A stretch of DNA of 64,000 nucleotides from contig CM059432.1 in NCBI GenBank assembly GCA_030390025.1, positions 65,040,001-65,104,000 on the forward strand. Reading direction: 5' to 3'. Origin of the DNA: Squalus acanthias. Lineage: Eukaryota. The notes under the pieces are model-generated. The model ran no database searches. It was given only the letters and a program-made list of their open reading frames with translations, and was not told where the DNA came from. Both the position numbers and the translations under genes were made by a program. This document shows, in pieces, positions 7,820-30,590 of the stretch. Every line of letters begins with the position of its first letter. Position 1 is the first letter of the stretch.

Positions 7820-8890
7820 TATTTGTTTATGGGATCAGGGCGTCACTGGCAATGCCAGCATTTATTGCCCATCCCTAGTTGCCCTTGAGAAGGTGGTGGT
7901 GAGCCGCCTTCTTGAACCGCTGCAGTCTGTGTGGTGATGGTACTCCCACAGTGCTGTTAGGTAGGGAGTTCCAGGATTTTGACCCAGCGACGATGAAGGA
8001 TCAGCGATATACTTCTAAGTCAGGATGGTGTGTGACTCGGAGGGGAACTTGGAGGTGGTGGTGGTCCCATGCGCCTGCTACCCTTGTCCTTCTAGGTGGA
8101 AGAGGTCGCGGGTTTGGGAGGTGCTGCCGAAGAAGCCTTGGTGAGTTGCTGCAGTGCATCTTGTAGATGGTACACACTGCAGCCATGGTACGCCGGTGAT
8201 GGAGGGAGTGAATGTTTAAGGTGGTAGATGGGGTGCCAATCAAGCGGGCTGCTTTGTCCTGGATGGTGTCGAGCTTCTTGAGTGTTGTTGGAGCTGCACT
8301 CATCCAGGCAAGATGGAGAGTATTCCATCACACTCCTTACTTGTGCCTTGTAGATGGTGGAAAGGCTTTGGGGAGTCAGGAGGTGAGACACTCACCGCAG
8401 AATACCTAGCCTCTGACCTGCTTTTGTTGCCACAGTATTTATATGGCTGGTCCAGTTCGGTTTCTGGTCAACGGCGACCCCCAGGATGTTGATAGTGGGG
8501 GATTCGGCGATGGTAATGCCATTGAATGTCAAGGGGAGGTGGTTAGACTCTCGCTTGTTGGAGATAGTCATTGCCTGGCACTTCTGTGGCGCGAATGTTA
8601 CCTGCCACTTATCAGCCCAAGCCTGAACGTTGTCCAGGTCTTGTTGCATGTGGGCATGGACTGCTTCATTATCTGTGGAGTTGTGAATGGCGCTGAACAC
8701 TGTGCAGTCATCAGCGAACATCCCCATTTCTGACCTTATGTTGGAGGGAAGGTCATTGATGAAGTAGCTGAAGATGGTTGGGCCTAGGACACTGCCCTGA
8801 GGAACTCCTGCAGCGATGCCCTGGGGCTGTGATGATTGGCCTTCAACCACCACAACCATCTTCCTTTGTGCTAGGTATGACTCCAGCCAG
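7820..8890 (-). mobile_element. 5'-truncated LINE (CR1/L2 group), RT C-terminus and 3' tail
   Basis: [15 protein letters not shown] and MFADD motifs; IYKAQVRSVMEYS; frameshifted. Confidence 0.9.
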
Positions 8891-8891
8891 T

Positions 8892-11740
8892 GTATTACAA
8901 CTAAAAGTATGTAGGAAATCGTCTGTGTCAGAGCAGTGGGAGGCGTTTAAGGAGGAGATAGTGAGGGTTCAGAGCAAATATGTTCCCACAAAGAAAAAGG
9001 GTGAGACTCCCAAATCTAGAGCCCCCTGGTTGTCAAGGAGCATACAGGGTAGGATAAGGCAAAAAAGGGCAAGCTTATGTCAGATACCGAGAGGTCAATA
9101 CTACCGAAAGTCTATTGAAGTACAGAAAGTGTAGGGTTGAAATTAAAATGGAAATTCGGAAAGCAAAGCGAGGGCATGAAAAAATATTGGCAAGTAAAAT
9201 CAAGGAAAACCCAAAGATGTTTTATAAATACATAAAGAGCAAGAGGATAACTAAGGAAAGAGTAGGGGCTATTAGAGACCAAAAGGTAACCTGTGTGTGG
9301 AGGCGGAAGACGTGGGTATGGTTCTTAATGAATACTTTGTGTCTGTTTTCACAAAAGAGAGGGACGATGCAGACATTGTAGTTAAGGAGGAGAGTGCGAA
9401 ATATTAGATGAGATAAACATAGTGAGAGAGGAAGTATTAAGGGGTTTAGCATCTATGAAAGTAGATAAATGCCAGGCATGGATGAAATGTATCCCAGGCT
9501 GTTAAGAGAAGCAAGAAAAGAAATAGCGGAGGCTCTGACCATCATTTTCCAATCCTCTCTGGCTACAGGCGTGCTGCCAGAGGACTGAAAAAATTGGTAA
9601 CATTGGGGGAAAAATTGGGTTGCTTTGCGCCTCCCGTTAGCACCTCGAGAGGGCACTAACGGGGCGCAAAGCTCCTAGTGCCCGGGCGCGGCGCTGCTAA
9701 TGCCATCCGCGAAATTCAGCGGGAGGTTACCGGCGGCGGTAGCCAGTAGCACCCCGCTGCGCTGCACCTCCGGCAATGATGTCATCGCCCTGCTCGCGCC
9801 CCAGCCGCAAACTTGGCTCGTGCCCCCTGACCTGTCACCGGACGCTATGTCTGACACGGTCAGGGTGGCATTTTTGCAGCCGGGGCGGCATAAATTAAAG
9901 GGCAAGTGCCGGGCGGCCATTTTTTCTGTACTGCCTGCCAGCACCTGCCCCCTTTCGCCTCCTCAGGTGGGGTGCCGGCCGCGATCGGTCAGCCTGGCAC
10001 TCCTCTTGAGTGCCGGGCTCTTTTACCGGCAACCCGCTCCCCGGTGGTCCAGCAGGGTCCCGGTGCGTGCTGCGCTAGGCCCCTCCCCTTTAATTAGGGA
10101 AGGGAGGCCTGCAATACCGCGGCACAATGTGCTGACGTGTGTGGCCCTGATGCACGTAGCACCGCGATATTCAATGGGAGCGCCCCAAGAGGGAGGGGAA
10201 CGCTTCCAGTAGTGCCCCGTCTCCTGCTTGGGGCGCTACCATTCAATTTTGGGCGCGAGGGCGCTAACTTTTTTGGGGCACTAAAAGTAGCACCCCGGCG
10301 AAGTTAGCTCCCCAATTTTACCCCCAATACCTTTGTTTAAAAAGGGAGAAAGGGATAGACCAAGTCATTACAGGCCCATCAGCCTAAATACTGTGGTGGG
10401 CAAATTATTGGAAAAAATTCTGAGAAACAGTATAAATTGTCATTTAGAAAAGCACGGATTAATCAAGGACAGTCAGCATGGATTTGTTAAGGGAAGGTCA
10501 TGTCTGACTAATTTAACTGAATTTTTTGAGGAGGTAATGAGGAGGGTCGATGAGGGTAATGCATTTGATGTAGCCTACATGGACTTTAGCAAGGCTTTTG
10601 TCAAGGTCCCACGTGGCAGGCTGGTCAGAAAAGTAAAAGCCCATGGGATCCAAAGTAAAGTGGCAAGTTGGATCCAAAATTGGCTCAGTGGCAGAAAGCA
10701 AAGGGTAATGGTCAACGGGTGTTTTTGTGACTGGAACACTGTTTCCAGTGGAGTTCTGCAGAGCTGAGTAAGGTCCCTTGCTTTTTGGTGGTACATATAT
10801 CAATGATTTAGACTTCAAAGTAGGGGGCATGATTAAGAAGTTTGAAGATGATACAAAAATTGGCCATGTTGTTGATGAAGAAGAAAGCTGTAGACTGCAA
10901 GAGGATATCAATGGACTGGTCTGGTGGGCAGAAAAGTGGCAAATGAAATTCAATCGGAGAAGTGTAAGGTAATGAAATTGGGAATTGCTAACAAGGCAAG
11001 GGAATACACAATAAACGGTAGGATACCGAGAAGTGTAGAAGAACAGAGGGACTTTGGAGTGCATGTCCACAGATCCCCGAAGGTAGCCAGACAGGTAGAT
11101 AAGGTGGTTAAGAAGGCATACGGGATACTTTCCTTTATTAGCCGAGGCATGGAATATAAGAGCAGGGAGATTATGCTGGAACTGCATAAAACACTAGTTA
11201 GGCCACAGCTAGAATACTGCACACAGTTCTGGTCACCACATTACAGTAAGGATGTGATTACTCTGGAGAGGGTACAGAGGAGATTTATGAGGATGTTGCA
11301 AGGACTGGAGAATTTTAGCTATGAGGAAAGATTGGATAGGCTGAGGTTGTTTTCTTTGGAACAGAGGAGGTTGAGGGGAGATTTAATTGAGGTGTATAAA
11401 ATTATGAGGGGCCTAGATAGAGTGGATAGGAAGGACCTATTTCCCTTAGCAGAGAGGTCAATAACCAGGGGCATAGATTTAAAGTAATTGGTAGAAGGAT
11501 TAGAGGGGAGTTGAGGAGAACTTTTTTCACCCAGAGGGTGGTGGGGGTCTGAAATGCACTGCCTGAAAAAATGGTGGAGGCAGAAAACCTCATCACATTT
11601 AAAAAGTACTTGGATATGCACTTGAAGTGCTGTAACCTGCAAGGCCAAGAACTGAAAAATGGGATTAGGCTGGATAGCTCTTTTTCGGCTGGCACAGACA
11701 CGATGGCCTCCTTCTGTGCCGTAAATTTCGATAATTCTAC
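8892..11740 (+). mobile_element. 5'-truncated, degenerate CR1 LINE ORF2, interrupted by a MITE
   Basis: NPKMFYKYIK, YRPISL, QHGFVKGRSCLTNL and LVRPQLEYC motifs plus a CR1-type 3' UTR; many stops and frameshifts. Confidence 0.92.
9605..10325. mobile_element. GC-rich Harbinger-type MITE nested in CR1
   Basis: TIRs GGGGGAAAAATTGGG / CCCAATTTTACCCCC; the CR1 sequence resumes on both sides. Confidence 0.75.
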
Positions 11741-16063: not shown

Positions 16064-17698
16064 TGTAAGGGGTGACCTGCGGCTCTGTGCTTAGCCTGGG
16101 TGCTAGTGCGGGGTTAGGCCTTGTTGCCTGTTCTGGTCTCCAGCCAGCCTGGTAACACTAGACACCTGTGAGTGGTTCGACCCACTCGCCCTTACGGTTC
16201 TGACACTGGACTTAGGTGCGAGAGCAATAATGCAGAGAAAACTCAGGTAGACCCGGTTGAATAGTGCGAAATGGAAAATCTTTATTGCATATTATTCAAG
16301 ATTACGAGATACATGTCATAAGCACAGATTAATGACAGTACAATCTTACACACAGTTATGAAACTAATTTTAGGGAAACGAGGAGCGCACGACACATCGT
16401 AAAAGGGGACACACATTATAATTATCCTTAAAACTTAAACCCTCCCCTATCAATACCTGTCCTAATCTAGATTTGTAGGATCGAGACTCATGCTCACCAC
16501 TCGTGATAACTCGGAGAATTCCGAAACTCTGCTCGGATGTTTTTACCGCAGCACCTGACTATCCACATGTTGATCAGGGGTCTCTGTACCCCACTTGTTT
16601 ACTCGTTTCTGCTCCGGCTAGCAGGCTGGACCGTCTGCTGTCATGAAGATCTGTGTTGCCCTCGGAGTTCTGATACTACTCAAAAAAGAGTCTTCCTGTG
16701 CCCTACACCGGTTCGATAGAACTCGAAGAAGGGTCTTCCTGGGCCAGTTGTGGAGTAGCCGATAGAATTCAAAGAAGTGTTTATTCGACTTACAGGCGCG
16801 GTCGGGGCTTACTGACCGTGGCGATGCATATTGTCGTCTTCTTCTCTTCTCATCTCATCTCATCTCATCTCATCTCCTCTCGGGCCTTCGGTTCCAACAC
16901 CGTTTACCAACCCCTCGGGATGGTGCGCCCGCTTCCAGGCCTCACAGCCCAGTTCTCCACAGATCTTCGCGGCAAGCCACGAGGTTGATCCTAGCGGATC
17001 AGAGTCCAGAGCCATCAGGCAAGAGAATAAAAGTTCAGCAGTCTTCCAGCGAGTCAAAGCAGCAAGAGAAAGATGGACGGCTGTACTTTACAGTTATAGT
17101 GCTGTAATTCCTCTTTTCCCGCCCAATCTTAATGTCTATCTTTTGTCAGGGTTTTGGCGCTCAAACTTCTTGTATGGGGTGATCTCAGTCTTTAATGGGT
17201 TTCGGTGACACTTGTAACTGTCTGAGTACCCGTTAATATTTCTCCCATTGTGGAACCGGCTAGTAGTCTCCCTGGAGGGGTTTTGGGGCTTCCAAATGCT
17301 TGCTGTGAGTACCCGCAAACGGCTCTCTCATCGTAGAGTCATGGGGATTTTGCATATTAATGTCTTTGGATGGGTCCTTGATCGCTCAGTACAATAGCCC
17401 TTGTTTGCACCTGGGAGACCGATTTCAGTATTCATGTTTAAAGTGTAAACCCATCGCGTTTTGTCATTATCTCATCATGTTGGATCTTTTCGATCTTGCA
17501 CAAATGTTTATTGGAACGCCATCTTGTCTGCCTACTGAAAGTCTAGAACTTTCTGCCACGAGGCGTGGCGGCCATTTTACAGGCTGTTTGTGTCCGTTTT
17601 GAAACCTGACAGCATTCTGCTGAAATAAAGCTGTTTATACGAAACTACATGTCTCCTTCTTATTTTTATAAAATCGCGATAATTTTGCGAATTCTACA
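16064..17698 (-). repeat. 3' LTR (1635 bp)
   Basis: Direct repeat of 27106-28734 with about 13 substitutions and one 6-bp indel by manual comparison. Confidence 0.97.
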
Positions 17699-18141: not shown

Positions 18142-20652
18142 TTACGCGGTGCTTTCATCGTGCACGCGCACGTAACGTTCTCGCCACTCTCCCGTGTTTT
18201 CGTTCTTGGTGAGGCGTTTGCCTCTCTTACAATGCACGACCAATAAGTATATCACAATAAACACTTGGCATACAACTAAAATGTGGGAGGCTATTCTAAT
18301 CCAGGAAGGCACTTCAATATTGGTGAACAGGTCCCACCACGGTGGAATTACGATGTCCAGAATTTCTGTCCCTATCTCGACAGTCTTTTGTTCTAGGGTG
18401 TAAAAATGTTTTTGCGATACCGCGACGGCTTTCAAAAGCTTGGTGAGGTGTTCAGGGAGAGGGGGAATGAGGTATCCGAAATGCGCGACGAATCGCTGCA
18501 AGTCGGTGAAGTTCTCTTTTACTGTAAGATGAACAGTGGATGGTTCAGGGATCAGGACAATTCGCTGTTGTGCCACTTGAACTTCCGCCCTGGGTTTAAA
18601 ACAGAAACTGCTGTCACTCACCGGACACCGGCTACGGTTTCCATGCTGGTAGTGTTGCGCTGCAGTGGTAACACAATATGTTCCACCCCCGATGTATGCT
18701 ACCTGCGGAGGCACATGATCTTGCGCCATTGCCTCCATGGTGCAATTCATGGGCTTGGCGCCAGCCGTTCTGAACCCGCACTGTGGTGTTAAAAAGGCAT
18801 TCAAGTGCTGGGGACACAGTATTATGTGTGCTCCCCGGCCACGACAACCAGAGAGATCTGTACCTGTCATCGTTTGCTCCCAGCGGATGACGTAAAGTGG
18901 AACCGCTGCATAGCGAATGTGGGCTCCCCCCTGAATGACACCAATGTTCTCTACCCGATACACCGGGGCGGGCTTTGCTGTGTCGCCCAAAACCGGCATA
19001 CGTAAAACTACACCCATAATGGTGTGGTTTGATCGTCCGCAGTCCACGGGGACTGGGTATGCTTCTGAAGCTAGCCTGAGCTGGCACGGACTTAATGCGT
19101 TCTGAAAAGGGTGGAGTGCCTGCAGGTGTTTGTTACTTATCCAGGACGGGACCAAACCTTGTTTTAAATCCTCCAAATTACTGCGGCCCTCGCCCAGTAA
19201 CCACGCCCCGTAAAGCACGCATACCTCATTCTGCGCAGTCTGATCGGACGCATTCCGATCTTCCCTAATCAGGGCATTTACCGTACGCGCATGTTTCTCT
19301 AGTTCAGCTATTATTTCTTTTAAATGGAGAGTCATGGCCTGGTCCTCATGTAACCCAGACCCAACCACCTTATTTTCATCTGTGAGAATGTTCTTCAATT
19401 GTGTTTTTAAGCCATTAATCTGGGTCTGCAGCTCCACGCTGTCTAGAGCGTTGACCACAGATGTACCTGTATTGAAAGCAGTGAACATGTCGTTCACCAC
19501 ACCCCTTCTTTGTCTCCCTACCTGACCCAAAACTTCATGTGGTGCGGTGTACAAACTTGTTTTATCAATTTCCGCGAAATCGAACTCATAAAATTGCCTA
19601 AACATCTTGGTCAACAGGACCTGATATAACTGTTCCGTCTCTTTGGGGCACCACTCTGGCAACCGCACCTCGGTGAGGTTTAAAATCACTGAGGCCACCG
19701 CGTAATGTATCCCCTGAAATAGTATCTGGTCTGTAGGGACCAATACCAAACCATTCCCGGGTCCCTTACTGGTTTTTGGGCACCCGTTTTCCTGAGCCAG
19801 AACCACCGGAATCGTGGGCGGGGCCTTGTGTGGGCGCGTAACGAGTTCAGTGGCGTTTACCGGGATCGGAGAGTATGGGGCCCCGCACCCCCTGGTGCTT
19901 ACATCCCACCTCATCCCCTGCCCGTTATCCTGCCACTGATTCACGAAAAATATGGATATGCCTTTGGGGCAAACGTGCTTTGACCCCCACATACATACAT
20001 AAATTCCCTCATCCGGTTCCCACCATTTGTCCCAACAGACTCTCACTTGTCCGTTTGTCCCCGTAATTGTCCGATGGGTGTTATTACCCAGTCGCTCCCA
20101 CTCGACCGAAGAGTTCCTCATGTTTTTGCTCAGCTTTCGCAGCCACCACCATCGGCTCAATGGGACATTCCCATTACAAGTCAAACAAATCCGTTTGCCG
20201 ACGGTGACGCTGACTCTGGGTGCGATGATCCTCACTTTGGGGCACATTAAAGAAGTCTCTTTGTAGGCAAAACCCGATGTACTGGAATACTCAGTGGAAT
20301 TCGTTCCCAGCCATCCTGGCCACCTTCCCTTGTGGAAATAGGTGGCGGTCTCCTCAGCCTCTCGCCTTCCGGTCCCATCCACCGCGATGGGGGCCGTGTC
20401 CCCGGAGCATCCAAATACCACGACATCCTTGGTGCGGCCTCGATAGGCCAGTCCACATCCGATTGCCGCGAGCACTACCAGAATCCGTTCCATCCTTCCT
20501 TGGTTCCTGTGATCAGATAGAATGAGGTAGCCAGCCTCCCAAGAGTCTCTGGCTTTTGTGAAGGGTGAGCGGGTCCCCTGACCTCGCCTCACGTAAGAAG
20601 ACATGTGCGCTGGATAGACTTTAACTATTCCTATCTCTAAAACTCCCATCAT
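18142..20652 (-). CDS. env: Intact envelope glycoprotein: signal peptide, Ig-like domain, F-like class I fusion protein, TM (probable start ATG 20493, 783 aa)
   Basis: Signal-like MERILVVLAAIGCGLA; furin site RQRR at 19515-19504; fusion peptide GVVNDMFTAFNTGTSVV; heptad repeat; Cys-rich block; TM ILVVCQVFIVIYLLVV; short tail with YVRV; several N-glycosylation sequons. Confidence 0.9.
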   Translation of the reverse strand: MMGVLEIGIVKVYPAHMSSYVRRGQGTRSPFTKARDSWEAGYLILSDHRNQGRMERILVVLAAIGCGLAYRGRTKDVVVFGCSGDTAPIAVDGTGRREAEETATYFHKGRWPGWLGTNSTEYSSTSGFAYKETSLMCPKVRIIAPRVSVTVGKRICLTCNGNVPLSRWWWLRKLSKNMRNSSVEWERLGNNTHRTITGTNGQVRVCWDKWWEPDEGIYVCMWGSKHVCPKGISIFFVNQWQDNGQGMRWDVSTRGCGAPYSPIPVNATELVTRPHKAPPTIPVVLAQENGCPKTSKGPGNGLVLVPTDQILFQGIHYAVASVILNLTEVRLPEWCPKETEQLYQVLLTKMFRQFYEFDFAEIDKTSLYTAPHEVLGQVGRQRRGVVNDMFTAFNTGTSVVNALDSVELQTQINGLKTQLKNILTDENKVVGSGLHEDQAMTLHLKEIIAELEKHARTVNALIREDRNASDQTAQNEVCVLYGAWLLGEGRSNLEDLKQGLVPSWISNKHLQALHPFQNALSPCQLRLASEAYPVPVDCGRSNHTIMGVVLRMPVLGDTAKPAPVYRVENIGVIQGGAHIRYAAVPLYVIRWEQTMTGTDLSGCRGRGAHIILCPQHLNAFLTPQCGFRTAGAKPMNCTMEAMAQDHVPPQVAYIGGGTYCVTTAAQHYQHGNRSRCPVSDSSFCFKPRAEVQVAQQRIVLIPEPSTVHLTVKENFTDLQRFVAHFGYLIPPLPEHLTKLLKAVAVSQKHFYTLEQKTVEIGTEILDIVIPPWWDLFTNIEVPSWIRIASHILVVCQVFIVIYLLVVHCKRGKRLTKNENTGEWRERYVRVHDESTA

Positions 20653-20788
20653 TTTACCATTTTCTGTTAAAAACCTTAAACTACAAACTTAACCTGATTT
20701 AAGAAGTATAAACTTGAACTTACAAAACTTATCAACTTATCACTTATCTTATAACTGTACAGTGCCGCCCGTTCCCAGGGTGGCCTAC

Positions 20789-23700
20789 TCAAATTCTGCG
20801 GTTGCTGCCGCAGGCTTCTCCCAACGGTGGGAGGGCATTGACCCCTTCCTTTGATCTGCCGCAGCCTGTTGCTGCTGCGCTGTGACTGGGCTCTCCCTGG
20901 GCTGCCTTAGCCCTGGGCCTACGCTTAGGGACATACGGGGGACTTACCCACATCTTTCTGGGCTGGGGTTTCCGACTTGACCTACGGGGAACTACCGGGG
21001 GCAGGAACTCCAGGACTGACGGACCGGGTTCCGAGACTTCCACCGTGGCGACCTGTGGTCCCACCACAGTCGCTGGCTCCGCCTCCCCTGACTCCGCCTC
21101 CCTGAACTCAGGATCTGCAGCTTGTGGCACCGCCCTACTTGGCCCAGTAGGTGCCCCTTCACTCGCAGTCCCTACCTCCCTCGAGGGCAAGACGTTCAAG
21201 GCAGGCGGCTCGGGCTCTGAGGCTTCCATCGCCACGCCCTGTGGTCCCACCACAGCGGCTGGCTCCGCCTCCCCTAGCTCCGCCCCCCTGCGTTCGGGAC
21301 CTGCAGCTTCGGCCTCCACCCTGTGTGGATCTCTATCTGCAGCCCCTGTCTCCCCATACCTGAATCGGGGGCGACCCTTTCGTCCTCCGATTCCAGCTCC
21401 TCTTCGCTTGTGTCACTATCTTGGTCGAGCTCCTCGAACTCTTCCTCATCTGACTCCCAACCCAAATAAAGGATCCTACATTTTGCTAGGATGTCCTCTC
21501 CCCTGATGCAGGCTGCTTTGCCTGCCTGTGTGACCTGTGGCCCTACCCGGGGCTGCGAGTCCCCACTCGCAGGTTTGGCCCCTGTGGTTGGCCCTTGTGC
21601 ACCCGGCTTATACAGTTTGCACTGATTTACGTGGAACCACTTTGTGCGCCGAGGTACCTTTACGGCGTATACCATGGGACTCACCTTATCTACAATGCTG
21701 TAGGGTCCCATATACAGTGGTACCAGACTTCCTACTCTGGCATAGTTTCTGACCATGACCTGGTCTCCTACTTCCCACTCCCGCTTCTTGCGGGGTTCCA
21801 GCAACAGGAGATTGCCCTGATGCTGCCTTCCCATGTTCCCAGCCGCCTGCTCATAAACCTGCTTCAGGCGCTCCAAGAGGGTCTGGACGAACTTGTCCCT
21901 GCTTACCTCTTGGAGCTGACCCTCAGTGAGCACCGGCGCTAGCACATGGGTGGGGGTTCGCATGATCCTCCCAGTCATCACCTCGTGCGGGGAATACCCC
22001 GTACTTTTCGACTGACTGGCCCGGACCCCCATGAGGACTAAAGGCAGAACCTCCGCCCATTTTTGGGGCGAGTTCATAGTCTCTTTCCTCAATTTCTCCT
22101 TCAGGGTCCGGTTCATGCGTTCAACAATCCCGGATGACTGGGGATTGTGCGCTACGTGCCATTTCCCTTCAATGCCCAAAAGCATGAGGGTGTTCTGCAT
22201 CACCTGGCCGGTGAAATGACTCCCTTGGTCTGACTCCACAAAACGGGGGAGTCCCCACCGCGAGAACACTTCCCGGACCAAGATTTTTGCAGTACCCAGT
22301 GCCGTAGCTGTTCTACAGGGGAAGGCTTCCACCCATTTGGAAACACATCCACCAAGACGAGGCAGTATTTATAGCCTCCCTGGGTGGTGGGCAGGGGCCC
22401 TATATAGTCGATCTGTATCGACTGCCATGGTGCCTCCACCCTCCTGATGTGCCCCATGGACACTTTCCTTTTCTGGGGGTCTGGGTTGTTTGCAGCGCAC
22501 ACGAGACAGCTAGCACAGAACTCGCGGACCTGCTCCCTGAGTCCCGGCCACCATCCCGCCTGCTCTACCCGTTGCCAGGTAACCTCGGGCCCGGGGTGCC
22601 CTGCCCCCGGCCCCTCATGAGCCAACTGGAGGAATTCCCTCCTGTGCTGCTGCGGCACAACCCACTGCTCCTCGCGGAACAGCATGCCTTCCTTAACGGA
22701 GAGGGTGGCCGTACTGTACGGACCCTCTACCTGCTTGCCCTCAGCAATGGTTCTGAGAACTGCCTTTAGGGCGGGATCCTGGTTCTGGATGGTCTTAAGG
22801 TCTAGGGGCAATGCTACCCTGGTGTTCCCGGGATTCCCGTCCCTGCCCTGGATCGCTGCCACGGGTCCGGGCCCATAGGGGTCCCAGAAAATGCCGTTAC
22901 GGGCACCCTCCCTGGCTAGCGCATCCGCCTGCTGGTTGCCCTCCCCACGGGGCTCTGTGGAGGAGTGAGCCTTCACCTTATGGATGAAAATCTCCCCTTC
23001 CTCCCCTACTGCTGCTAGGATCTTTTCCAGCAAGGGCTTCACCGTTAAAGGTTGCCCGTCCGCGGAGGTGTATCCACAGCGGGACCAAATGGCCAGGTAT
23101 TCCGTACACGAATTGCATGTGAACATACTGTCCGAGCAAATCGTGTATGGGGTTGGGAAAGTTTCTGGGTGGGTAACGACGTACACCACCGCAGACAGCT
23201 CAGCCTGCTGCGCGCTCATGGTGCTGGGGAGCTTAATCGCCAGGGCAAGGTTTGCCGCAGGGTCATAAACTCCACACCCTGTGAGTCGTTCGCCAGCAGA
23301 CACTGTGCTGGAACCATCAACTTAAATCTCGCGACCTGTGGGATGTATCCCGGCCCGCAAACCTATGTTGACTTCCCACACCCCTTCCACCGAACACTGG
23401 TGGGCTGTACCGGGGTATACCAAATTGGCCACAAGCCTGGGCTCGCAAAGACATTTAATTCTAAGATCCATCTGGGAAAGGAGAAGGGTCCAGCGCGCAA
23501 TTCGAGCGCTGCTTACGGTCCCATCCTTAATCCTCCCATCTAGAAGCATCTTAGTTGGTGTGTGATGGGTGAGGAGAGTGATGGGAGAGAGCCCTGTGAA
23601 GATCGCTGATCTTTTCACAGCCCAATGTGTGGCTAAAAGATGCCTTTCGCAATTGGAGAAACTCCTCTCCACATCCGTTAACACTCTGGACGAATAGACA

Positions 23701-25277
23701 ACCGGCCTCAGCTTGCCGTGACGCTCTTGGAGCAGCACAGCGCCCAAGCTGTCTCCGCTGGCAGCTACCTCCAGGAAAAACTCCTACCCCCCATCTATGG
23801 CCCCTAAAGCTGGCGCGGTCTGCAAATCCCTTTTTAACTTCTCGAAGGCTGCCTGGCAGCCCTCGTCCCAAGACCACTCCACTCCCTTATGGAGGAGTCG
23901 GAGCAGCGGTGCCGCTGTGGCCGCATAGTCTTCAATAAAATCCCTGCAGTAACCGGTCAGTCCCAAAAAGGACCTCACACCCCTTATGGTGTTGGGAATC
24001 GGTAACTCTTGCACCGACTCCCTCCTAGCCTTATCTATGGCTCTTTCCCCAGCGCGAATGGTCAGCCCCAGGAATTTTACTTCCTGCTGACCGATACGTG
24101 CTTTCTTAGGGTTCACTTTAAAACCCTTTCTCGCTAGCAGCTCCAATAACTCGGCCACCAGTGGTCCATGCTCCTCCCTTGAGTCCGTAAATAGGAGCAA
24201 ATCATCCACGTACTGCACTATCTGATTGGGCTGACTAAACTCCTTTAAACTTCCTGTCATACACTGATGGAAAATACTGGGGATGTTGTGGAAACTCTGT
24301 GGCAAACAGTTCCATGTGTACTGTTGTCCTTTGAAAGTAAAGGCAAACTTGTACTGGTCCTCTCGCCGCAGCGGGATGGACCAAAAACCGTTCGAGATAT
24401 CCAGCACCGTGAACGTGGTCGCGGACGCTGGGATACTCCCTATTAGGTCAGCAACTGCTGCTACCGTGGGCGCGCAGGCGGGAATGTTACTGTTAAGGAC
24501 TCTGTAGTCCACCGTGGCCCTCCACGAATTATCCAGCTTCCTAACCGGCCATAATGGGGAGTTCACGTGTGTGGCTATCGGCCTCAACACGCCCTGCTGC
24601 ACCAAGGAGGACATTGCTGTCTCCATATCGGGTTCTGCTTCTTTGGGGAAGTTATACTGCTTTTGGGGCCGGGTCATGGGGTCCCCATCTACGCTGACCT
24701 CAAACCCGGTAACCCTCCCACAATCGTGCTTGTGGGTTGCAAACGCGTGCATATTATCTGACACGTACGTCTGCATGTCCGTTGGGACATCCGCAACCAT
24801 AAGCCCGAGGTCGTAGCCTTCGGATGGCTTCATGGTACACAGGGCCCCTTTACCTTCCTCCCCCGGGATTACCACTACCTTGCCTTTTCCACCCTTAGCT
24901 CCCCAGAGACAGTGATTCCTGAGGTCCACGAGGATCCCGTGCCCCGATAGGAGATCTGATCCGAGGATGCCTCTCCCACCCCCCTCTTGCCATTTCATCA
25001 GTATGCACTTCCACGTGGTGTGGAGTGCTCCTAAATGAATGGATAGCGGAATGGAGAACGCGCCAGCCTGCTCTTTTCCCGTAAACCCCGCTAATGTGTA
25101 TGGGACCTTGGTAGATAGCGGTGAGTCAAAGGGGCTATCCGTATGAATCACGGTGCATGAAGCTCCCGTGTCCAACAAATAACTACCCTTCTGCTTCTCT
25201 ACCTCCATCTCCACCAGGGGTCGCTTCCACGCATCATAGCTGAGCGGACACAGGTAGACGGGCTGTGCGGGCTCTAG
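20789..25277 (-). pseudogene. pol: pol: protease, RT, tether, RNase H, integrase and a low-complexity tail; 2 in-frame stops (23784, 23322) and frameshifts near 22342 and probably 21370
   Basis: LLDTGAS; NSPLWPVRK, DYRVLN, LDISNGF, LPQSF, YVDD; tether GAVLLQ...RIARW; RNase H DGS / SAQQAEL / SDS / KVKAH / GNQQADALA; integrase HHCC, QIDYIG, SDQGSHF, VERMNRTLK, GPY. Confidence 0.95.
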
Positions 25278-27101
25278 TCATTGGGTACTGTTGGACGGGG
25301 CTGCGGCATCTGCGGGGCCGGTAGCGACTGCCACCCTTCCCTGCGAAATCATGAGGGTGCGCATGGCTCCCAACATCGATTCGATCGCATCGGGATGGAT
25401 AGGCACACCAGCTCCCCTATCAGAGACAGGCACCTGGGCTCGGACTGCGGGATTTTTATCCCTGGACTCCTTCCAAGGGTTCCTGCAGTTCTTGCGCCAG
25501 TGCCCTGTCTTTCCGCATCCGAAACAAGCATTACTGGCCTGTGGGACGCGATTTCCCTCCTGATGCCACTCCTTTTGAGCCGGGGCTGTGGGCCGCGCCT
25601 CATGCACCTTTCCCTTAAGGGGACGTGCTGCCGTACTCCTGGTATTACGGTACCCTACCGTGAGTCGATTTAGGACCGACTCCTCTGTTGTGGCGGGGTT
25701 AGTGGGATCAAACCACGCTTTGGCCTGCTCCCTGACGGCTGGCAAACTGTTGGCAACTAAACACCTGAGCCAATGAGTTAAACCGACACCGTTCAAATAG
25801 GTGCGCTCTGGTGCACCTGGGCAGCTACGTTGATATACTGGCCACAGCCTGTCGGCGAAAACCTTCGGGGGTTCTCCCTCCATCTGCACTGTTTGTCCCA
25901 ATCTAACGAACGGACCTTCATCATCCGCTCCCAACACTTCCAGGACCTCATCTCTTAACTCCTCATAGGTATTATTTCCCCTCTTGCTCTCATCTGAGAG
26001 ACACTGAAGGATCGAGCTGTCTAATGAGAACAGCAGCATTTTTGCTTTTTCCCCATCGTCGCAGCCGTTAATGGCTGCGGTCTGCTCTACCTCCCTGAAA
26101 TGTACGGAAGGGTCATCTGACTCGGACAGCTTCCGTACGTGACTGATCATGGCCCTCAGCTGGTGTGCATTGTGCGGCAACACAAGCTGGCTGAGGAGAT
26201 CCTCCTCTGCCCCACCGTCTCTGTTCGGGCCCCTTTTGATACCCGTGACCGGACACAACGGTCCCGGCTTCACTTCTACCTCAGGGGGCTGTACTACCTC
26301 GGGGACCTCTTCCTCTACTTCTACCACTTCCTTCCTCACCCAGGTTGCCGAATAGCTGGGTGGCGCGGAGGGCACAGTGGCAAATATCTCCTCTGCCTTG
26401 TTCGGTGGGGATTTCTGAAATTCCCCACCCACCAGCGGCTGGTGTGCTGACGGGCTGATAAGGCACACCATGCCGTGTGCTTTATTCAGGGCCTCTTTAA
26501 GGTTCCCTATCTCTCTTTGGCAGACGCTGTGATCGGCCCCCTCATGTTTATCCTCGAGGGCCATCTTATATGCCGCCCTAACCCCCGTTAAGCTCTCTTC
26601 CTGGGCTTTTATTTGGGCAGCTAGGCGGGCACATCGTTCCCTTATTCTGCCCTCATTTAACTTTGCCTCAGTGACCTGGCACTCGAGGTAATCTATTTTC
26701 GCCTCATGCTGGTTGGCGACTCACTGGCGTTCTTGATGCAACGCATTTAAAGACGCGATGAGCTGCTGCCCCCCCGCGACCTTCTCGTCCATTTCCACCT
26801 CTAAACCCTTGATCTGAGCTGCCTGCGCTATGATGACCTGGTCCGAAAGCTGGACTTGTCTTTTATAGCACATCAGCCAGACCGCTTTCTCTACAGTTTT
26901 TTTATGTTCCTTGCTACCTGTCCACCACACGGCTGCCTCTAGTGGACGCTTATCCACCAGCAGGTCACTTATCCATCTCTTAGTCAAATTCACTTTTCCA
27001 AAAACATAATCAGCTATTCTCTCTTCCATAACATTTCGCCCATTCATACCAGGGTCTAACACATTATTTTCTCGCTGCCAGTGTCCCTTCGTGGTCGCCA
27101 T
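25278..27101 (-). pseudogene. gag: gag with one in-frame TGA at 26721-26723
   Basis: ORFs 26721-27101 and 25278-26564 are in the same frame. They encode a coiled-coil-like N-terminal half, a capsid-like region with MHR-like QMEGEPPKVFADRL, and the zinc knuckle CFGCGKTGHWRKNC. The start codon is uncertain. Confidence 0.88.
27083..27100 (-). promoter_or_regulatory. Primer binding site, tRNA-Arg
   Basis: TGGCGACCACGAAGGGAC lies 5 nt after the 5' LTR and is complementary to the 3' 18 nt of vertebrate tRNA-Arg(TCG) as I recall that sequence. Confidence 0.85.
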
Positions 27102-27105
27102 TATC

Positions 27106-28734
27106 TGTAAGGGGTGACCTGCGGCTCTGTGCTTAGCCTGGGTTCTAGTGCGGGGTTAGGCCTTGTTGCCTGTTCTGGTCTCCAGCCAGCCTGGTAACAG
27201 TAGACACCTGTGAGTGGTTCGACCCACTCGCCCTTACGGTTCTGACACTGGACTTAGGTGCGAGAGCAATAATGCAGAGAAAACTCAGGTAGACCCGGTT
27301 GAATAGTGCGAAATGGAAAATCTTTATTGCATATTATTCAAGATTACGAGATACATGTCATAAGCACAGATTAATGACAGTACAATCTTACTCACAGTTA
27401 TGAAACTAATTTTAGGGAAACGAGGAGCGCACGACACATCGTAAAAGGGGACACACATTATAATTATCCTTAAAACTTAAACCCTCCCCTATCAATACCA
27501 GTCCTAATCTAGATTTGTAGGATCGAGACTCATGCTCACCACTCGTGATAACTCGGAGAATTCCGAAACTCTGCTCGGATGTTTTTACCGCAGCACCTGA
27601 CTATCCACGTGTTGATCAGGGGTCTCTGTACCCCACTTGTTTACTCGTTTCTGCTCCGGCTAGCAGGCTGGACCGTCTGCTGTCATGAAGATCTGTGTTG
27701 CCCTCGGAGTTCTGATACTACTCAAAAAAGAGTCTTCCTGTGCCCTACACCGGTTCGATAGAACTCGAAGAAGGGTCTTCCTGGGCCAGTTGTGGAGTAG
27801 CCGATAGAATTCAAAGAAGTGTTTATTCGACTTACAGGCGCGGTCGGGGCTTACTGACCGTGGCGATGCGTATTGTCGTCTTCTTCTCTTCTCATCTCAT
27901 CTCATCTCATCTCATCTCCTCTCGGGCCTTCGGTTCCAACACCGTTTACCGACCCCTCGGGATGGTGCGCCCGCTTCCAGGCCTCACAGCCCAGTTCTCC
28001 ACAGATCTTCGCGGCAAGCCACGAGGTTGATCCTAGCGGATCAGAGTCCAGAGCCATCAGGCAAGAGAATAAAAGTTCAGCAGTCTTCCAGCGAGTCAAA
28101 GCAGCAAGAGAAAGATGGACGGCTGTACTTTACAGTTATAGTGCTGTAATTCCTCTTTTCCCGCCCAATCTTAATGTCTATCTTTTGTCAGGGTTTTGGC
28201 GCTCAAACTTCTTGTATGGGGTGATCTCAGTCTTTAATGGGTTTCGGTGACACTTGTAACTGTCTGAGTACCCGTTAATATTTCTCCCATTGTGGAACCG
28301 GCTAGTAGTCTCCCTGGAGGGGTTTTGGGGCTTCCAAATGCTTGCTGTGAGTACCCGCAAACGGCTCTCTCATTGTAGAGTCGTGGGGATTTTGCATATT
28401 AATGTCTTTGGATGGGTCCTTGATCGCTCAGTACAATAACCCTTGTTTGCACCTGGGAGACCGATTTCAGTATTCATGTTTAAAGTGTAAACCCATCGCG
28501 TTTTGTCATTATCACATCATGTTGGATCTTTTCGATCTTGCACAAATGTTTATTGGAACGCCATCTTGTCTGCCTACTGAAAGTCTAGAACTTTCTGCCA
28601 CAAGGCGTGGTGGCCATTTTACAGGCTGTTTGTGTCCGTTTTGAAACCTGACAGCATTCTGCTGAAATAAAGCTGTTTATACGAAACTATCCTTCTTATT
28701 TTTATAAAATCGCGATAATTTTGCGAATTCTACA
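27106..28734 (-). repeat. 5' LTR (1629 bp)
   Basis: Direct repeat of 16064-17698, adjacent to the PBS; contains a (TCTCA)n run. Confidence 0.97.
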
Positions 28735-29459: not shown

Positions 29460-30590
29460 ATATGGGTGGACTACATAAAGTTAAGTAAATCTGGCCATGC
29501 TAAGGCCATCCCTGGCCTCCCGGGCAGCAATGTGCTCGAGTGCTGGTGCCATCTGCACCGCAGGTTCCTCCAGCTCCTGCTCCTCCTCGTCTTCCAGCTG
29601 ATGCTCGTCCTCCTCCTCCTCCTCCTCTGAAGAGACTGTGCGCTGAGTGCCTTGCTCCTCATGCAGTGCTAATCCTCGCTGCTGCACTTTGTTGTGCAGG
29701 GCGCAGCAGACCACGACGATTCTGGAGACCCTGGCTGGTGCATACTGAAGGACTCCTCCAGATCTGTCAAGGCATCTGAATTGTAATTTCAGATTACACA
29801 TCTGGTGGAGATGTGGCTTTCATTATAACTCTCCTCGGCCTCAGTACTTGGCCTCCTCAAGGGTGTCATGAGCCACGTCTTCAGTGGATAGCCCTTGTCT
29901 CCAAGCAGCCAGCCAGAGGGTATGTCTGGAGGTGTGAAGAGCTGAGGGAGGGTGGAATGGCGCAAGATGAAAGAGTCATGACAGCTGCCAGCGAATTTGC
30001 ATGCACATGCATGATGATCTTCCTATGGTTGCAGACCAGCTGCACATTGAGGGACTGGAAGCCCTTGCGGTTGACCAAGACTCCTGTGTGATGATGGGGT
30101 GCCCTGATGGCCACATGTGTGCAGTCGATCATGCCCTGCACCCATGGGAAGCCAGCCAGAGTGGCAAAGCTGAGCACCCGCTCAGTAACACTGACTTCAT
30201 CAGTGGCAAAGTTGATATAATTGGCTGACTTGTCAAAGAGGGCGAATAAGTTGAGGGCTCTGGTGACTTTGACAGCAATGGGTAAGGCGTGTCCATCCAC
30301 TCCTCTGGGCTGCAGGTCTTCCTCCAGCAATGTGCAAATGTCAATGACGATCTGGGGCGATAGCCTGAGCTTCCTTTGGCACTGCTGCTCAGTCATGTTG
30401 AGGAAGCTCATCGTTTGATTGTATACCCTGTGTTGGGGATATCGCCTGTGGTGCCATACACACCGCGCTGATGCCCTCTGTCCTGTGGAGCATCAGGGCT
30501 TTGAGGAGAAGGTTGGTGGTGTTGTTGTTGGTGCTGCTAATGTTGGGGCTCATTGTGGTTAGATTCTGAGGACCAAGGTAAGACAATATG
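29460..30590 (-). pseudogene. Degenerate Harbinger (HARBI1-like) DDE transposase
   Basis: [28 protein letters not shown] and FRCLDRSGGVLQY...CCALHN motifs; frameshifts and deletions; ends approximate. Confidence 0.88.

Follow-up and report, generated by a model that had tools for sequence, protein, structure and literature searches.

We describe the env gene of a provirus on the minus strand of a 64,000-nucleotide stretch of the Squalus acanthias genome (assembly GCA_030390025.1, contig CM059432.1, positions 65,040,001 to 65,104,000; hereafter the window, with position 1 as its first letter). Its predicted product opens with a head built around a probable immunoglobulin (Ig) fold and continues into a core resembling paramyxovirus F proteins, and it is the combination of an Ig head with an F-type envelope protein (Env), together with a head slot that varies among relatives, that is new. 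The best reading, which we hold with confidence a little above even, is that an F-type fusogen here carries a receptor-binding head that can be swapped. Residues are numbered from the methionine at 20493, which is matched in position among relatives and followed by a hydrophobic signal segment; residue numbers in a preliminary description of this DNA are these plus 53, such that its C159 and C220 are C106 and C167 here.

The 100-residue translation of 19942-20241 (minus strand) contains VSVTVGKRICLTC, WWWLR and VRVCWDKWWEPDEGIYVC, all at the places where the preliminary description had put them, and the V/I-set spacing that it read from them is present, with a B-strand cysteine (C106), a C-strand tryptophan (W115-117) and a D-x-G-x-Y-x-C F strand (D161, G163, Y165, C167) that are conserved in homologues. 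The pattern C-x(8-12)-W-x(35-55)-[DE]-x-G-x-Y-x-C, written with the env sequence in view, is found a single time in env; among 20,000 shuffled versions of env, 7 contain it. Pfam Ig_3 is the only or top match for the window domain (E 0.0088), and likewise for all three divergent in-genome copies scanned (E 0.006-0.01) and for the database relative P0012 (E 0.0085). All 18 PDB matches returned by phmmer with the domain belong to the Ig superfamily (IgSF), JAM-A being among the leads (E 0.24). Positions 16-107 of a seven-sequence domain profile align with the V domain of CRTAM (E 0.0086), and five of the seven matches of this profile are IgSF; it was built from the domain-only alignment A6, as unrelated flanks (zinc fingers, core) dominated the profiles from A2 and A4 and made them uninformative on the domain. 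The structure model of the head is all-beta, although of low confidence, and the top 50 VIA structural rows are nearly all Ig folds by their entry titles, with TREM, NKp44 and CD8 domains among the tied rows. Together these matches, the model and the conserved motif support the Ig-like domain first proposed, and we assign aa 84-186 to it with high confidence, probably as a divergent, V/I-set-like member of the IgSF.

The head is larger than this domain, spanning aa 17 to ~205 (~190 aa), with ~67 aa ahead of the Ig-like part; no family match was found for this leading segment (aa 17-83). Eight head cysteines (29, 84, 103, 106, 153, 167, 175 and 203), scored on the 13-row alignment A2, are each kept with at most one exception among the 11-13 homologues covering them, from which we infer four disulfides, including a C106-C167 pairing. 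Four of the eight (C84, C103, C153 and C175) are extra conserved cysteines of the Ig-like domain, which also has sequons at N127 and N137. In three pairwise comparisons dN/dS is 0.12 in the domain and 0.54-0.66 in the linker; pN is 0.20-0.25 in the domain against a pS of 0.69-0.79. The Ig-like domain is thus under purifying selection, and the linker that had been proposed between it and the F2-like part is present, Pro-rich and relaxed.

Downstream of the linker, a model of aa 229-730 built from 37 rows (pLDDT 72.5) has hPIV3 F as a Foldseek match (E 3.8e-11), along with the F proteins of RSV, Nipah and PIV5. There are 248 fold matches at E ≤0.001, and the model also matches further class I proteins of viruses, baculovirus F among them. 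Phmmer with the core alone gave no PDB match at E 10, whereas profile and fold searches did give matches, the best PDB sequence match of the core profile being foamy gp130 (E 0.011). The model shows the env ectodomain core as a predicted paramyxovirus-F-like class I fusogen, in agreement with the earlier claim. Other class I parts are the signal peptide (recognised by eye), a furin-type RQRR site at aa 327-330, heptad helices and a C-terminal transmembrane segment; the mean hydropathy of the segment following RQRR, where a hydrophobic fusion peptide would be expected, stays below 1.5. Paramyxovirus and pneumovirus F proteins have the same fusogen core and no receptor-binding domain (RBD); Ig-fold domain II of F belongs to that core and is not equivalent to the N-terminal head described here.

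Named relatives come from Rhinoraja, Pristiophorus, Rhincodon, Chiloscyllium and Mustelus. A search of 1.84 billion database representatives gave 50 matches at E ≤0.001, and N-termini were compared among those listed matches that reach the core start. This comparison, which the preliminary description had recommended, shows that the N-terminal slot varies across relatives, holding other Ig-like heads, a Cys-rich head, or nothing. The head type of the window env is also found in a skate, a sawshark and a whale shark. Chiloscyllium P0015, which UniRef already names Ig-like, has a different Ig-like head (Ig_2 E 0.11, with weak antibody matches in PDB), and heads of this second type occur at loci L067 and L069 of the same genome as the window. 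The head of P0037 matches V-set at E 0.0017, and the whole protein has no PDB match at E 1. Two frog heads (P0023 and P0051) have Ig-like spacing; neither these nor the L067 and L069 heads have a Pfam match, and the Ig reading of all four is therefore by eye. In Mustelus P0014 and Pristiophorus P0025 the head is Cys-rich, and in P0041 and P0053 the signal peptide runs straight into the core.

The 13-row core tree places P0037 (V-set head) and P0041 (no head) as sisters (95/94), and the window env family as sister to the Cys-rich type (88/93, not starred). The profile of the window head, compared with the Chiloscyllium-type, frog, P0037 and Cys-rich heads, scores within the range of 40 column shuffles each, and against SnRV1, from the snakehead retrovirus (SnRV), it lies at the edge of that range (15.38, with a shuffle maximum of 15.32); the remaining pairs, compared without shuffle control, have probabilities below 8%, apart from two overlapping SnRV pieces. 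As the head types have no convincing mutual alignment, the heads may have been captured several times independently, or once long ago with later losses.

Several further features of these relatives were noted. The second F-type env family of the genome (L067, L069 and L057-L066) is 34-81% identical to Chiloscyllium P0015, and by eye it has in common with the window env a W-x-x-x-W-x-x-x-x-G ahead of the F strand. P0051 belongs to a cluster of 16 related F-type envs from the frog Mantella aurantiaca, mostly of 677 aa, which suggests a recent expansion in that species. P0005, P0006, P0013 and P0038 join env-family pieces to host domains (Niban, zinc fingers, cadherin, F-box) and are probably gene-model chimeras over proviral insertions.

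Lokiretroviruses resemble the window provirus in having an LTR-gag-pol-env layout (LTR, long terminal repeat), a tether plus second RNase H, and an F-like Env with RxxR (PMC7947760, main text and the supplement part covered). That part (300 of 318 supplement pages) prints 23 Envs, one of them a fragment and 22 with a readable N-terminus. In all 22 the signal peptide leads into the core motif, with no Ig head and nothing like the ~220-aa head and linker of the window env, and the main text has no mention of immunoglobulin. Two loci with lokiretrovirus signatures, L094 and L095, likewise have headless Envs. The preliminary description had allowed that the head might be a documented general feature of lokiretroviral env; because the published Envs covered are headless, that objection does not hold.

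In the mechanism that we favour, the Ig-like domain would be the core of a disulfide-bonded ~190-aa head at the N-terminus of an F-type Env. By analogy with F and foamy virus Env, the surface part after cleavage at RQRR would consist of the head, the linker and the F2-like segment, with the flexible Pro-rich linker tethering the head to the F2-like segment. The head would most likely bind a protein on the host cell surface, which would probably itself belong to the IgSF, with nectin-like/CADM proteins as the first candidates in view of the CRTAM match, and one trimeric protein would then perform both attachment and fusion. Binding to the host cell is probable because related envs fill the same slot with other domains or with none, and an autonomous, flexibly linked N-terminal domain whose slot undergoes gain, loss and replacement matches the behaviour of RBDs in gamma-type Envs; receptor binding, like cleavage, is put forward on these analogies.

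Three alternatives were weighed. The first is that the Ig head is real but structural, serving to cap or shield the prefusion trimer or to help folding, while the core attaches, as it has to in relatives without a head. Headless Envs do exist (the 22 published lokiretroviral Envs covered, L094, L095, P0041 and P0053), and the domain is conserved rather than diversified and has two sequons, all of which would suit a cap. However, a binding module that acts independently accounts better than a fitted cap for the fast-evolving flexible linker and for heads that have repeatedly given way to modules that do not align, and we regard the structural role as unlikely. Second, the head could be a virus-evolved beta-sandwich that merely resembles Ig motifs and has no descent from a host IgSF gene. 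Its Ig_3 scores of 17-17.6 bits lie below the curated cut-off of 30, its model is of low confidence, its E-F segment is unusually Trp-rich, it has the extra cysteines, and for the capture from a host gene suggested in the preliminary description no donor was found among 5,826 candidates, the best lead being that to CRTAM; the donor search recovered only six env-family relatives and its negative outcome is weak evidence. Such convergence is nevertheless improbable, given that the full motif spacing is rare among shuffles, that the profile can be aligned with a V domain over its whole length, and that other occupants of the slot score as Ig; a host origin of the head is what we infer. The third alternative, an immune decoy or adhesion mimic that engages a leukocyte or junctional IgSF receptor and so dampens killing or aids cell-to-cell spread without determining entry, could draw on CRTAM and JAM-A as the best sequence leads and on the TREM, NKp44 and CD8 rows, but every one of these leads is weak or tied, the head occupies the RBD position of other Envs and is fused to a fusogen rather than encoded by an accessory gene, and we find this explanation about as improbable as convergence.

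The reverse transcriptase (RT) of the provirus has 40% identity to that of SnRV; the corresponding values are 33-37% for gamma, epsilon and foamy viruses and 32% for the lokiretrovirus loci. In a 20-row RT tree without a Ty3/Gypsy outgroup, the window, its nearest Pol relatives (named NYNRIN-like) and the lokiretrovirus loci are joined at 86/92 (not starred), with SnRV next; three loci with lokiretrovirus signatures (L094-L096) form a 100/100 clade that excludes the window, and four foamy RTs form a separate 100/100 clade with the window outside. Grouping of the window with lokiretroviruses alone is rejected (p-AU 0.029), and grouping with SnRV is not (p-AU 0.116). The RT motif PFG, found in 24 of 24 published lokiretroviral RTs in the material covered, is replaced by LPQ in the window, as in SnRV, and in the strict sense the lokiretroviral identity assumed in the preliminary description therefore fails. 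Elsewhere the window is closer to lokiretroviruses: by score, its tether, RNase H region, integrase and env core all favour the lokiretrovirus loci over SnRV, with the first three scoring best against L094-L096 (the integrase best against L094 and L095), and its env core matches the L095 Env at 98.4%. The tether plus second RNase H of its pol is matched by RT_RNaseH (E 1e-19) and RNase_H (E 5e-19).

An SnRV-like identity, drawn from the RT identity tree, was also considered; it was withdrawn because the enlarged comparison, with lokiretroviruses and foamy viruses added, placed the window between groups, in a mixed position. SnRV (L043, assigned by its RT and its 10,688-nt length) has the highest RT identity to the window among reference viruses, an LPQG-type RT motif and an Env core homologous to that of the window (94%, E 1e-7), whereas its integrase and RNase H are far more distant. 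Its primer-binding site is presumably of the Arg type, like that of the window. The SnRV Env has an N-terminal extension of ~490 aa, whose alignment to the window head is not above shuffles. At L043:6191-6520 (plus strand) this extension has a weakly Ig-like stretch with Cys/Trp/Tyr-x-Cys spacing (V-set E 0.16; ESM 0.93, unnamed). From these sequence comparisons we read the element as a member of an unnamed lineage allied to lokiretroviruses and SnRV.

A broader proposal, which we put forward tentatively and consider rather doubtful as a whole, is that the F-type Env of this vertebrate lineage, widespread in cartilaginous fish and frogs, has an N-terminal plug-in slot. Host IgSF domains would have entered this slot independently several times (in the window family, the Chiloscyllium type, the V-set type and perhaps the frog type) and a Cys-rich module once, and elsewhere it is empty. 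The same plug-in design may exist in the living snakehead retrovirus. If the proposal is true, capture of Ig domains would be the recurrent means by which these fusogens acquired receptor specificity with no attachment protein of a separate kind.

As a rule, F-type fusogens depend on a partner protein for attachment or have an RBD specific to the virus. An Ig head in a slot open to gain, loss and replacement would illustrate one way for a bare F protein to become a one-protein entry machine, and a definable domain of 100-190 aa makes its structure and ligand approachable without any virus. The parts are not without precedent in the portions of the literature covered. Single-chain attachment plus fusion on an F-like core is known from foamy Env and coronavirus spike (PMC11468914, PMC12583693); foamy Env (PDB 8RM1) has the same fusogen core, and its added RBD, which puts binding and fusion on a single chain, has a novel fold and forms an insertion upstream of the furin site (PMC11468914). 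Gamma-type Envs have swappable N-terminal RBDs, and the alpharetrovirus-like Env-Dbi has a captured SIRP IgV as its N-terminal RBD (Hötzel, bioRxiv 2024.03.17.585361). Like the window env, Env-Dbi has an Ig-like domain at its N-terminus, in its case a canonical IgV with a B-F disulfide that is read as a captured RBD; unlike it, Env-Dbi has a gamma-type core, mammalian hosts and a clear donor, as opposed to an F-type core with no donor detected. The Ig head on an F-type Env would parallel SIRP capture in an unrelated Env class. In the literature searched, which lacks most subscription papers and bioRxiv supplements, we found no F-type retroviral Env described with an Ig head, no such description for the Env of SnRV, and no statement that the SnRV Env core is homologous to an F-like env of the present kind. 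The earlier suggestion of an undescribed architecture accordingly stands in so far as no lokiretroviral Env covered has such a head, and not for the single-chain F-like design or for IgV capture. SnRV-like endogenous retroviruses in elephant shark were already known from the literature covered; lokiretroviruses were found in none of six chondrichthyan genomes screened (PMC7947760, part covered; Wang & Han 2020), and the window extends lokiretrovirus-allied elements to cartilaginous fish.

The provirus itself is young and high-copy (features in the table below). Its LTRs are 98.8% identical across 1635 columns (13 mismatches and one gap), end in TG...CA and are flanked by a 4-bp target-site duplication, CAAT. 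With the 100-aa domain as query, the best 150 of 5,461 candidates are all 96-100% identical, indicating at least 150 near-identical copies, a lower bound for the 3.7 Gb assembly; the domain match is stop-free in 146 of the 150 copies scored. Two older in-genome subfamilies have the same head, at ~62% and 48-52% identity over the N-terminal 235 aa. Although gag is interrupted by one stop and pol by in-frame stops and a frame change, env in the same provirus is open. From the open reading frames and a Pfam scan, nothing in the provirus was recognised as a separate gene for attachment. Four contig runs of presumed type cover all 30 bins, which carries no information on transcription or splicing.

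Table. Features of the provirus in the window.
Feature	Coordinates	Strand	Evidence
5' LTR	27106..28734	-	pairwise match to 16064-17698
Primer-binding site, tRNA-Arg(TCG)	27083..27100	-	18 nt complementary to host tRNA-Arg(tcg) 3' end + CCA
gag region, one stop inside; zinc knuckle	25278..27155	-	zf-CCHC E 0.0025
pol: protease, RT, tether, RNase H, integrase	21274..25277	-	RVP, RVT_1, RT_RNaseH, RNase_H, Integrase_H2C2, rve
env, open, 783 aa from probable start	18142..20493	-	open-reading-frame list, relatives' start
Signal-peptide-like segment, aa 1-16	20446..20493	-	short hydrophobic run after Met; by eye
Pre-Ig part of head, aa 17-83, conserved C29	20245..20445	-	predicted partly beta
Ig-like domain (high confidence), aa 84-186	19936..20244	-	C106, W115-117, D161-x-G-x-Y-x-C167
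Pro-rich linker, aa 187-236, conserved C203	19786..19935	-	dN/dS 0.54-0.66
F2-like segment, ending in furin-type site RQRR (19504-19515)	19504..19785	-	fold model, Foldseek
F1-like ectodomain: long helices, Cys-rich beta domains, C-terminal helix	18295..19503	-	model pLDDT 72.5, Foldseek
Transmembrane anchor, ~aa 734-755	18229..18294	-	only 19-aa windows with hydropathy >1.5
3' LTR	16064..17698	-	pairwise match to 27106-28734

The env open frame has 848 codons (18142-20688, minus strand), of which 65 lie upstream of the probable start (20494-20688, minus strand); many env copies have open frames of 826-848 codons, and the upstream stretch is possibly a leader or a splice junction. Between pol and env lies a Pro/Glu-rich open frame of 207 codons (20789-21412, minus strand) with no Pfam match of note, which contains a 141-nt direct repeat (20996-21136 and 21182-21322, 76%) and is possibly an accessory open reading frame or an integrase tail. 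The LTRs are long, at ~1.63 kb, and five bases separate the end of the 5' LTR from the primer-binding site. By eye, the N-terminal part of gag is a probable coiled coil. Flanking the provirus, 8001-11500 and 29881-30492 contain fragments that, from a look at their open reading frames, we take to resemble LINE reverse transcriptase and a Harbinger-type transposase.
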